Assembly: GCA_037141055.1 (NCBI GenBank)
Contig: JBAXDH010000002.1
Location: forward strand, 17,057 to 81,056
DNA length: 64,000 bases
Reading direction: 5' to 3'
Origin: a bacterium
GTDB taxonomy: Bacteria; Bacteroidota; Bacteroidia; Bacteroidales; FEN-979
In this document: one piece after another, positions 38,139 to 39,893 of the stretch
How the letters are laid out: every line of letters begins with the position of its first letter
Numbering within the stretch: position 1 is the first letter of the stretch
The notes under the pieces: model-generated
Seen by the model: only the letters and a program-made list of their open reading frames with translations
The model's database searches: none
What the model was told of the DNA's origin: nothing
Made by a program: the position numbers and the translations under genes

Positions 38139-39893
38139 TCATCTCCCCAGTTTACTGTGCCTCCTCCCGTAACTGAAATAAATAATCAGCCCGATGGCAA
38201 GCCAAACCAGGAAACGCATCCAGTTTGTCACACCAAGCTGGGCCATCAGGTAAAGGTTTGTTAGCAATCCCAATACGGGGATCAGCGAGAGTTGATTCCG
38301 GATACCATACCAGGTCAGGACAACGGCAGCCAGGATGAACAGGATGATGGGGAAATCGGTGAGGAAAAGATGCGGGATGCGGGATATGGGATACGGGATA
38401 CGGGATACGGGATGCGGGATGAAAAAACCCTTTATCTCGTCCTGGTTCCAGAACAGCAGGAGTACGATGATCGCGGTCCAGATGACCGGCAAAAAATACC
38501 TGCTGTTAAAGTATGGCACCTGGAAGCCTTTTTCATCTTCAGGAACCTTGCTTTTTTTCCACCCGCTTTGAATCACAAGCACGCCGCCCGATACCAGGAT
38601 AAAGGCAAACAGGGTGCCGATACTGGTCAGGTCGGTCACCTCGGTAAGATTCATGAACAGGGACGGCACTGCCACCAGCACTCCGGCGACGATGGTCGAG
38701 AACCAGGGCGTCCTGAATCTTTTATGAATTTTAGAAAACGATGGTGGAAGCAGTCCGTCGCGGCTCATGCTCATCCAGATGCGGGGCTGCCCTACCTGGA
38801 ATACCAGGAGAACGCTGGCCATGGCGATTACAGCGCTGATGGCGATAATACCCGAAAGCTTTGTCAGGTGAAGTTTCTGAAAAGCATACGCCAGCGGATC
38901 ACCCACCCCGAGTTCGGAGTAATGAATCATCCCGGTCAGCACAAGGCTGATCATTATATATAGCACCGTGGTGATGATCAGTGCCAGGATAATGGCCCTC
39001 GGCAGGTCCCTTCGCGGGTTCCGGCACTCCTCCGCGGTGGTGGAAATGGCATCGAAACCGATGTAGGCAAAAAAGACCCCTGAAACACCCTTCAGCACGC
39101 CGGTCACTCCGTTGGGCGCAAACGGGTGCCAGTTTTTCGGGTCAATGTAGAACGATCCCACCGCGATGATCAGGAACAGGATGCCGACCTTGAGCAAGAC
39201 CATGGTATTGCTGGCAACCTTTGTTTCATAAATGCCAATGTATACCAGCACCGAGATGAAAACGACAATTGAAAATGCAGGAATATCGGCAATGATGCGG
39301 ATGCCGCCGATGACGGGAGCCGACTGCCATGCCTGGTAAGCTTCACGGAGCAGGTCGGGCAGGTTCGCCAGCGGTGTGCCGTGCAGCATTTCGAGCGTTG
39401 CCTGGTGATATCCTCTCGAAGCCGAAAGATAATCGATCGCCAAATATGCCGGTACATGGAGACCGATTCCCCCGAGAAAACCGGTAAAATAATCAGACCA
39501 GGATATCGCCACGGCAATGTTTCCGATGGCATATTCCATGATGAGATCCCAGCCGATGATCCATGCGATGAGCTCGCCAAAGCTGGCATACGCGTATGTA
39601 TATGCACTTCCGCTGATGGGTATGAGCGAAGCGAACTGTGCGTAACACAGCGCTGAAAATGCACAGGCCATCGCGGTGAAAAGGAAAAGTAGGGACACCG
39701 CCGGACCGCCGCTGGTGGCTGCCGTTCCGATGGTGCTGAAAATGCCTGCGCCGATCACTGCAGCAATTCCGAGCGCGGTGAGATCAAAAACCGTCAGGCT
39801 TCTTTTCAGCCCGGAGGTGTCTCCTCCGCGGTTTCCGGCATCCTGAAGGATATGGCTGATGGATTTTTTGCGGAAAAGATGCGGATTTGACAC
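38139..39893 (-). CDS. APC-superfamily amino acid permease (cationic amino acid transporter-like)
   Basis: 584-aa polytopic ORF with N-terminal GLKRSLTVFDLTALGIAAVIGAGIF and the FAYIGFDAISTTAEE block. It contains an in-frame heptamer DNA array at 38372-38420. Confidence 0.85.
   Translation of the reverse strand: MSNPHLFRKKSISHILQDAGNRGGDTSGLKRSLTVFDLTALGIAAVIGAGIFSTIGTAATSGGPAVSLLFLFTAMACAFSALCYAQFASLIPISGSAYTYAYASFGELIAWIIGWDLIMEYAIGNIAVAISWSDYFTGFLGGIGLHVPAYLAIDYLSASRGYHQATLEMLHGTPLANLPDLLREAYQAWQSAPVIGGIRIIADIPAFSIVVFISVLVYIGIYETKVASNTMVLLKVGILFLIIAVGSFYIDPKNWHPFAPNGVTGVLKGVSGVFFAYIGFDAISTTAEECRNPRRDLPRAIILALIITTVLYIMISLVLTGMIHYSELGVGDPLAYAFQKLHLTKLSGIIAISAVIAMASVLLVFQVGQPRIWMSMSRDGLLPPSFSKIHKRFRTPWFSTIVAGVLVAVPSLFMNLTEVTDLTSIGTLFAFILVSGGVLVIQSGWKKSKVPEDEKGFQVPYFNSRYFLPVIWTAIIVLLLFWNQDEIKGFFIPHPVSRIPYPISRIPHLFLTDFPIILFILAAVVLTWYGIRNQLSLIPVLGLLTNLYLMAQLGVTNWMRFLVWLAIGLIIYFSYGRRHSKLGR
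38372..38420. repeat. Heptamer tandem array (GCGGGAT/ACGGGAT) x7 inside the amino acid permease CDS
   Basis: gcgggat gcgggat atgggat acgggat acgggat acgggat gcgggat. On the coding strand this is ATCCCGY x7, translated as HPVSRIPYPISRIPH between two hydrophobic segments. Confidence 0.9.

Follow-up and report, generated by a model that had tools for sequence, protein, structure and literature searches.

A heptamer array translated within an accessory loop of a Bacteroidales amino-acid permease, probably a largely frozen microsatellite

Simple sequence repeat (SSR) contingency loci, for example the tetranucleotide tracts of Haemophilus and the CTCTT tract of Neisseria opa, carry a non-triplet unit within an open reading frame (ORF), and since the length of the repeat is not divisible by 3, the frame shifts with each single unit gained or lost. 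Heptamer arrays are reportedly also tolerated in a dispensable loop of an essential functional gene, namely the short tandemly repeated repetitive (STRR) arrays that heterocystous cyanobacteria carry within their RNase P RNA gene; these are free of the reading-frame and stop-codon constraint that applies here, because that gene encodes an RNA. In the present study we describe a heptamer array that is translated within an amino-acid permease gene, in a 64,000-nt stretch of contig JBAXDH010000002.1 from an uncultured Bacteroidales lineage (the window, by which we mean the whole stretch that was analysed). The array is probably a translated, now largely frozen microsatellite, in a lineage whose DNA around the gene is rich in 7-8-nt arrays.

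According to the account of Mrazek et al. 2007 given in PMC4679880, heptamers are the commonest of the long-unit SSRs (LSSRs, 5-11 nt) in prokaryotes and are mainly intergenic. Heptamer arrays are known in cyanobacteria (the STRRs), in Beggiatoaceae and in a few Bacteroidetes, with occasional translated copies at the protein periphery (PMC4679880). As far as they are covered by these sources, LSSRs and cyanobacterial STRRs are short arrays of 3-10 units of 7-8 nt that are lineage-specific, overwhelmingly intergenic and only sporadically found in ORFs, and the arrays described here are alike in these respects. The permease array has a 7-nt unit in more than three copies, beyond what chance would give; the window holds 13 period-7/8 arrays of at least three copies, 12 of which lie in spacers or at the ends of genes, even though ORFs make up about 92% of the window; and such arrays are also abundant in relatives, as seen from the flank densities given below and from the examples L165-L168. 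The host is, however, an uncultured Bacteroidales lineage, the units differ from spacer to spacer, and the in-ORF copy lies in an internal loop of a conserved transporter, a loop that is occupied by arrays in many orthologues. One related family is that of the TAACTGA heptamers, found in Beggiatoaceae, Cyanobacteria and five Bacteroidetes (MacGregor 2015, PMC4679880). As in the window, these arrays adjoin start and stop codons, and a minority are translated (as the 7-aa repeat LSVISYQ), mostly at the protein periphery (PMC4679880). A single unit dominates in them and has, in one orientation, a stop in every frame, whereas many units occur here and the coding ones are stop-free. Between close strains TAACTGA arrays differ by insertions or deletions (indels) in 7-nt steps (PMC4679880), but no 7-nt indels were observed between the strains compared here.

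The host gene (Table 1) encodes a transporter with Pfam matches above the cutoff to AA_permease_2 (residues 33-485, 2.8e-52) and AA_permease_C (residues 537-580, 1.1e-15). Its best solved homologue is the 12-helix GkApcT (5OQT, E = 1.7e-118), and the CAT4 and CAT1 structures match it at 1e-64 to 1e-77. The AA_permease core, the AA_permease_C domain and the homology to solved APC transporters together identify it as an APC permease. BcaP (NF053761) was the best match in NCBIfam, with 498.6 bits, which is under the curated cutoff of 690. In the phmmer alignment, residues 5-156, 202-461 and 537-583 of the permease aligned to residues 2-151, 158-412 and 415-461 of 5OQT, and residues 462-536 had no counterpart. 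Because GkApcT aligns only to the flanking segments, residues 462-536 were assigned to an accessory helix pair, with helices at about 466-482 and 514-531, which gives in total the 14-helix arrangement of CAT-type transporters. Hence the protein resembles the CAT-type (SLC7A1-4-like) 14-helix transporters, with a core that aligns with GkApcT and CAT1/CAT4 and AA_permease_C at its end, but differs from the 12-helix GkApcT in the hairpin turn that bears the array. This turn is predicted to face the periplasm because of the GkApcT alignment and the lysine plus arginine counts of the preceding loop (5 in residues 442-465) and of the C-terminal tail (4). Only helix boundaries were taken from an AlphaFold2 model built on a 27-sequence alignment (mean predicted local distance difference test score, pLDDT, 48; predicted template modelling score 0.34); in this otherwise poor model residues 492-501 had no secondary structure and a pLDDT below 50.

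Statements on homologues cover the 120 top-scoring proteins among the matches listed in the protein search (70-100% identity). Among them the loop is the most variable segment of the protein, ranging from absent to about 60 residues; no column of the homologue alignment is invariant between W472 and P515, and invariant columns flank the loop. The original prediction, made from the DNA letters of the window, had placed the array in a loop between hydrophobic segments near the C-terminus, and both hydropathy and the GkApcT alignment agree with this placement.

Tandem Repeats Finder reported the array at window positions 38369-38420 with period 7, 7.4 copies, 91% matches and a score of 76. Read along the coding (-) strand, its units are CATCCCG, CATCCCG, TATCCCG, TATCCCG, TATCCCA, TATCCCG, CATCCCG and CATC. 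The lag-7 match score of the array was 34, while 20 shuffled versions of the complete 64 kb scored 10 at most. A three-unit pattern with at most 3 mismatches matched six times in the 64-kb window, always within the array, against an expectation of 0.01. The array predicted at 38372-38420 as ATCCCGY x7 lies within this span and is the same tract in another register. It occupies nt 1473-1525 of the 1755-nt gene, which is 84-87% of the ORF, and it is in frame; it is read through in all three frames as IPHPVSRIPYPISRIPH, in the translated context F-F-IPHPVSRIPYPISRIPH-LFL. As also predicted, the units are imperfect, the longest perfect run being shorter than three units, and the frame arithmetic holds: computed gain or loss of one or two units results in frameshifted products of 523-582 aa with nonsense tails, whereas a change of three units keeps the reading frame. 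The C-terminal part that would be lost has about the predicted size, with 76 residues after the array, but three hydrophobic helices rather than two follow it, at about 514-531, 537-553 and 558-575 according to hydropathy and the AlphaFold2 helix boundaries.

Such an architecture had been read in the original prediction as a slipped-strand contingency locus, in which unit gain or loss would toggle the permease between full length and a form without the last three helices, and thus cause phase variation. The non-triplet unit within an ORF (7 nt, 7.4 copies, units imperfect) does fit, as do the frameshifted products, and between species, over long timescales, copy number and unit of the tract clearly differ. 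The strain comparison that had been proposed, however, revealed no difference in unit number. Strain-level DNA was obtained by exact-protein look-ups, which by construction cannot return length variants, and this bias was checked against the 90% protein cluster lists and the homologue search; the genome and metagenome scans gave, among the matches listed, mostly relatives at 84% identity or less. In sequences of the same species from four samples (L161-L164) the array was nucleotide-identical to that of the window, with 3-30 substitutions and no indels over 6-7.7 kb, so that five DNA haplotypes carry one and the same array. A sixth protein allele (P0122) has the same loop peptide. A further sequence (L172) was compared with the window along 21,755 nt that hold seven arrays, one of them a 10-copy octamer; it showed 25 substitutions but no indel.

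The protein lists gave the same picture. All three members of the 90% protein cluster have 584 aa, and no variant of plus or minus three units and no truncated variant at more than 90% identity was present among the 120 homologues. The next match after this species is already only 88% identical, and therefore no length or truncation variant of this species is contained in those lists. OFF alleles were likewise absent: in 167 of 167 complete orthologous loci among those listed, the C-terminal helices are in the frame of the upstream part of at least 1450 nt. Two 108-aa proteins (P0132 and P0134) were considered as frameshift products and rejected, since they are fragments at contig starts, one with error-like in-frame stops. 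It should be pointed out that two independent metagenome contigs of an 85%-identity relative, L170 (1-75) and L171 (1-7), begin just upstream of the variable loop, one of them with error-like in-frame stops within its first 75 nt; these starts may be due to chance, or assemblies may tend to break close to the loop.

The position and the host gene also speak against switching. A tract whose frameshifts inactivate the gene is typically 5'-proximal. Phase-variable SSRs are enriched near N-termini, and terminal SSRs otherwise reflect structural tolerance (PMC3315296), whereas this tract lies late in the ORF. The gene encodes a housekeeping-type nutrient transporter, not a surface or host-interaction protein, in an environmental Bacteroidales metagenome-assembled genome. 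Given the imperfect units, the 3'-proximal position and the lack of polymorphism and of OFF alleles in this sample, we regard a contingency locus as highly improbable.

The relatives of the window carry the labels Bacteroidales or Prolixibacteraceae. In at least 10 other species the orthologues contain different 7- or 8-nt arrays, in the same loop (Table 1), in the cytoplasmic loop that precedes it (another four lineages: L126, L131, L098/L011 and L106) or as a C-terminal tail. These in-gene arrays were called by DNA-level Tandem Repeats Finder; a protein-level scoring of 7/8-aa periodicity in the 120 homologues was dropped as unspecific, with 13 matches in the conserved core. Across about 165 loci scanned among those listed, all in-gene arrays of at least three copies lie at gene nt 1345-1545, and no 7/8-nt array was found in the first 1340 nt. 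Their frequency tracks the array density in the gene-flanking DNA: loci at 69% identity or above have 0.35-0.44 arrays per kb in the flanks and an in-gene array in 10 of 33 cases, against 0.09 per kb and 4 of 131 below that identity. Sister taxa in a neighbour-joining tree built from the conserved core have common unit types (window, L165 and L167; L088 and L089; L007 and L085), while the close relatives L001 and L002 have no array.

Several orthologues (L166, L126, L098/L011 and L106) extend the permease frame into a downstream array, which then forms the C-terminal tail. The tail of P0056/L166 consists of TKDEGRG repeats encoded by GACGAAG x10.9 (L166 4848-4923; TKDEGRGTKDEGRKTRDEGRRTRDE), that of L126 of SQQSAVG repeats, and SQQSAVGSQQSAVG likewise exemplifies these tails. 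Just upstream of the permease gene of L168 lie a Y1_Tnp (IS200/RAYT-like) gene at 2231-2773 and a 23-nt x3 tandem repeat, AAATTTCGCCCAGCATTGAATTA, at 2904-2971 with a palindromic partner.

How the array came into the loop was also addressed in the original prediction, which offered the insertion of an intergenic-type array into a tolerant loop as its second reading. The tolerant loop is well supported, as it is the least conserved segment, belongs to an accessory hairpin and harbours arrays in orthologues. Recombination, or else a mobile or templated process, might have imported a ready-made intergenic array, and the intergenic preference of the other 12 window arrays is in keeping with such a source. 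Intergenic units do recur, with GGCGGACA at three sites, GTGACAA in three arrays and GTGAGTC at two sites, and the loop of L089 carries two different arrays side by side, as do the intergenic spacers with paired arrays. But the permease unit, GGGATRC/[CT]ATCCC[GA], is found nowhere else in the 64-kb window, so that the predicted likeness to the intergenic arrays holds for unit length and not beyond it. Alignment with orthologues, which had been suggested as a means to detect an insertion, showed no net insertion: the loop has 30 aa in the window and 31 aa in L165, L167, L081, L003 and L168. Moreover, relatives at 84-86% identity (L165 and L167) carry decayed copies with the same unit in the same place and register, and their lag-7 periodicity is kept (P < 0.002), while it is absent in L001, L002, L081 and L003. 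No flanking target duplication or inverted repeat was found around the permease gene, and because the inverted-repeat search found nothing the array has no hairpin partner. As the unit is unique in the window, the loop lengths are equal and the relatives hold decayed copies, in situ amplification is favoured and import appears quite improbable. A possible seed is at hand, since S-R-I-P-H, a loop-end motif in many relatives, is encoded by TCC CGC ATC CCG CAT, which is two copies of CCGCATC.

A translated array has to be free of stop codons, and this constraint is visible in the orthologues. Whichever of the three frames is read, none of the heptamer units of the coding strand contains a stop. 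The octamer GAACAATA would place an in-frame TAG at every third unit, and at exactly those positions L085 (gene nt 1475-1527) and L007 (gene nt 1480-1544) have variant units with TTG or TCG, which results in a 24-nt super-period and, in L007, in NNRTIEQS x3. Among the window's 12 intergenic units, by comparison, 8 have a stop codon when read in one of the two orientations. These observations point to translation of the arrays under a stop-codon filter. A role of the intergenic arrays as all-frame stops after genes was also considered and dropped, because their orientation relative to the genes is inconsistent.

Selection might instead keep the tract for a function of its own, either as a template-strand G-quadruplex (G4) or protein-binding DNA element that modulates transcription or replication, or as a Pro/Arg-rich periplasmic loop peptide. 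With seven GGG tracts and 4-nt loops, the template strand carries a canonical G4 motif (at least four G3 tracts, loops of 1-7 nt), one of only two in the 64 kb by regex scan. The energy model predicts a minimum free energy of -10.4 kcal/mol with the quadruplex allowed and -3.2 without it. The second motif, at 49362-49396, is inside the 10-copy octamer array GGTAACAG/GGGTAACA (49323-49402) just past a gene end. GGGNATC heptamer arrays of Xanthomonas and Nostoc form G4 in vitro (PMC4692102), and like them the permease array is a heptamer with a G3 tract, because of which four or more units make a canonical motif. The units GGGATGC and GGGATAC nevertheless do not conform to the consensus GGGNATC/(GGGANTN)n (PMC4692102). 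Furthermore, GGGNATC repeats are depleted within coding regions (Rehm et al. 2015, PMC4692102), whereas GGGATRC lies within one. The orthologous units CATCCAG, GATCCGG, GCATCGC and GAACAATA lack G3 tracts, and a conserved G4 function is unlikely for this reason. On the peptide side, orthologues with as little as about 71% identity again have SRI[PSA][HY] as their end motif, and a loop length of about 31 aa is common to very different sequences, but apart from this the loop shows no sequence conservation. Arrays are missing altogether from many orthologues, and Rfam gave no match in the window at gathering thresholds. A selected function of the tract is therefore improbable to us, and the G4 motif is probably incidental.

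Taken as a microsatellite frozen in place, the array would have the following history. A 7-nt seed native to the loop-coding sequence, the CCGCATC pair encoding S-R-I-P-H, would have been amplified in place by replication slippage. The product may have survived since it formed the turn of an accessory, non-core and putatively periplasm-facing helical hairpin, since the total loop length stayed in frame and since the unit is stop-free in all three frames; the encoded peptide would then be nearly neutral. Transitions at unit position 1 (C/T) and position 7 (G/A) would subsequently have cut the tract into runs of at most three perfect units, leaving it stable on the strain timescale. Over longer times this loop, the preceding cytoplasmic loop and the C-terminal tail would repeatedly gain, homogenise and lose arrays, and this turnover may generate the length and sequence variation of the loop. 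The simplest history, of which the order of events is inferred, is a local amplification of the native seed in the ancestor of the clade, followed by differential decay or re-homogenisation.

Several points weigh against this explanation. Only consensus assemblies were compared, in which minority length variants within populations would be invisible, and the strain sample is small, comprising 5 DNA haplotypes that were looked up through identical protein sequences. On the template strand the tract matches the canonical G4 motif. The periplasmic side of the turn rests on homology and charge counts, not on a confident structure. In addition, periodicity persists in lineages at 70-86% protein identity, and the peptide end SRI[PSA][HY] is common to the window, P0002, P0013, L088 and L089; selection acting on peptide or DNA, as opposed to neutrality, might account for either. 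It is conceivable, though we consider it unlikely, that the hairpin turn, together with the neighbouring loop and the tail, is a selected site of evolvability, at which slow array turnover rewrites a periplasm-facing peptide, for instance under pressure from phages, toxins or partner proteins, and at which hidden low-frequency switching of one or two units might also occur. If so, the recurrence of different 7/8-nt units would mean selection for mutability and not mere tolerance.

Table 1. Features of the permease locus in the window (positions count from its first letter) and arrays in the corresponding loop of orthologues (identity to the window permease in brackets)
Feature	Position	Strand	Description or basis
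Amino-acid permease gene	38139..39893	(-)	584 aa, APC superfamily, CAT/BcaP-like, 14 predicted helices; ORF list, Pfam, hydropathy
Two-helix hairpin, residues 462-536	38286..38510	(-)	insertion relative to GkApcT, array at its turn; phmmer against 5OQT
Hypervariable loop, residues 483-513	38355..38447	(-)	between accessory helices 11 and 12; alignment, predicted periplasm-facing
Heptamer array, imperfect [CT]ATCCC[GA] x7.4	38369..38421	(-)	Tandem Repeats Finder, chance test
Canonical G4 motif (GGGATRC)x7, probably incidental	38374..38418	(+)	permease template strand; regex scan, minimum free energy
Intergenic heptamer array GTGAGTC x3.3	38113..38136	(+)	unit unlike that of the permease array; Tandem Repeats Finder
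Octamer array GGCGGACA x3.6	39952..39980	(+)	unit unlike that of the permease array; Tandem Repeats Finder
Loop array, L167 (86%)			ATCCCGC x3.4
Loop array, L165 (84%)			CATCCCG x4.6, decayed
Loop array, L166 (78%)			CATCCAG x7.9
Loop octamers, L085 (73%) and L007 (70%)			GAACAATA / GCACATCA
Loop arrays, L089 (72%)			CAGTTGG x4.6, then GCATCGC x6.7
Loop array, L168 (71%; 5.27-Mb contig)			CATCCAG x5.6
Loop array, L088 (71%)			GATCCGG x4.9 and CATC[GT]CG-like units
Loop array, L093 (70%)			TCATCCA x3.9

Both ends of the permease gene adjoin arrays of other units. The 42-nt spacer that separates the permease stop from the start of a TauE-family gene consists largely of GTGAGTC x3.3, and the same unit is also present at 17591-17618. 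On the far side, the GGCGGACA array adjoins the permease start and lies upstream of the probable start of a divergent NAD-binding gene; further copies are at 7620-7635 and 16680-16711. The 229-aa call of this NAD(P)-binding protein from 39944 translates the GGCGGACA array as MSKQADRRAGGQ..., with 39944-40016 ahead of the conserved start, and the real start looks like the conserved MKIAVFGASG at 40017. The three GTGACAA arrays are at 5986-6051 and 49466-49486, and GGACAGGC is also found 3' of the permease gene in another species (L167).

Elsewhere in the window, a G-rich array and, after it, a T-rich one take up nearly all of short co-directional spacers (e.g. 16677-16754 and 28340-28443). At 5981-6053, between convergent genes, the inverted arrays (GTGACAA)n and (TTGTCAC/TTGTAAT)n form a predicted hairpin of -28.2 kcal/mol (z = -7.5; 0 of 200 shuffles were as stable), which resembles a bidirectional terminator made up of arrays. 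Of the nine arrays with a strong GC skew, eight have their G-rich side on the + strand, irrespective of how the neighbouring genes are oriented (16679, 17590, 23385, 27630, 38113, 38369, 39952 and 49323; the exception is 49462), and the overall GC skew of the window is about zero (-0.007). Array orientation may thus be linked to replication rather than to transcription, in this small sample of nine arrays. A short palindromic element, AGACCTTCCAGG ... CCTGGAAGGTCT, occurs in intergenic DNA at both 14964-14996 and 16279-16310, with 4 arm matches against 0.23 expected, and looks like a repetitive extragenic palindromic (REP)-like hairpin family.

Heptamer and octamer arrays are abundant in several bacterial phyla. 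What this locus adds to the systems described above is that the same non-core transporter loop is occupied repeatedly by different units across species, with a visible stop-codon filter. The analysis also removes a tempting but unsupported phase-variation call from an environmental Bacteroidales genome. The locus illustrates in nature the filter through which non-triplet microsatellites enter proteins: survival is restricted to a non-core loop, a neighbouring loop or a C-terminal tail, and to units that are stop-free in all frames or variant units that dodge the stop. Because species differ in the units at the same loop, it is a handy marker for how heptamer and octamer arrays arise, become homogenised and decay.

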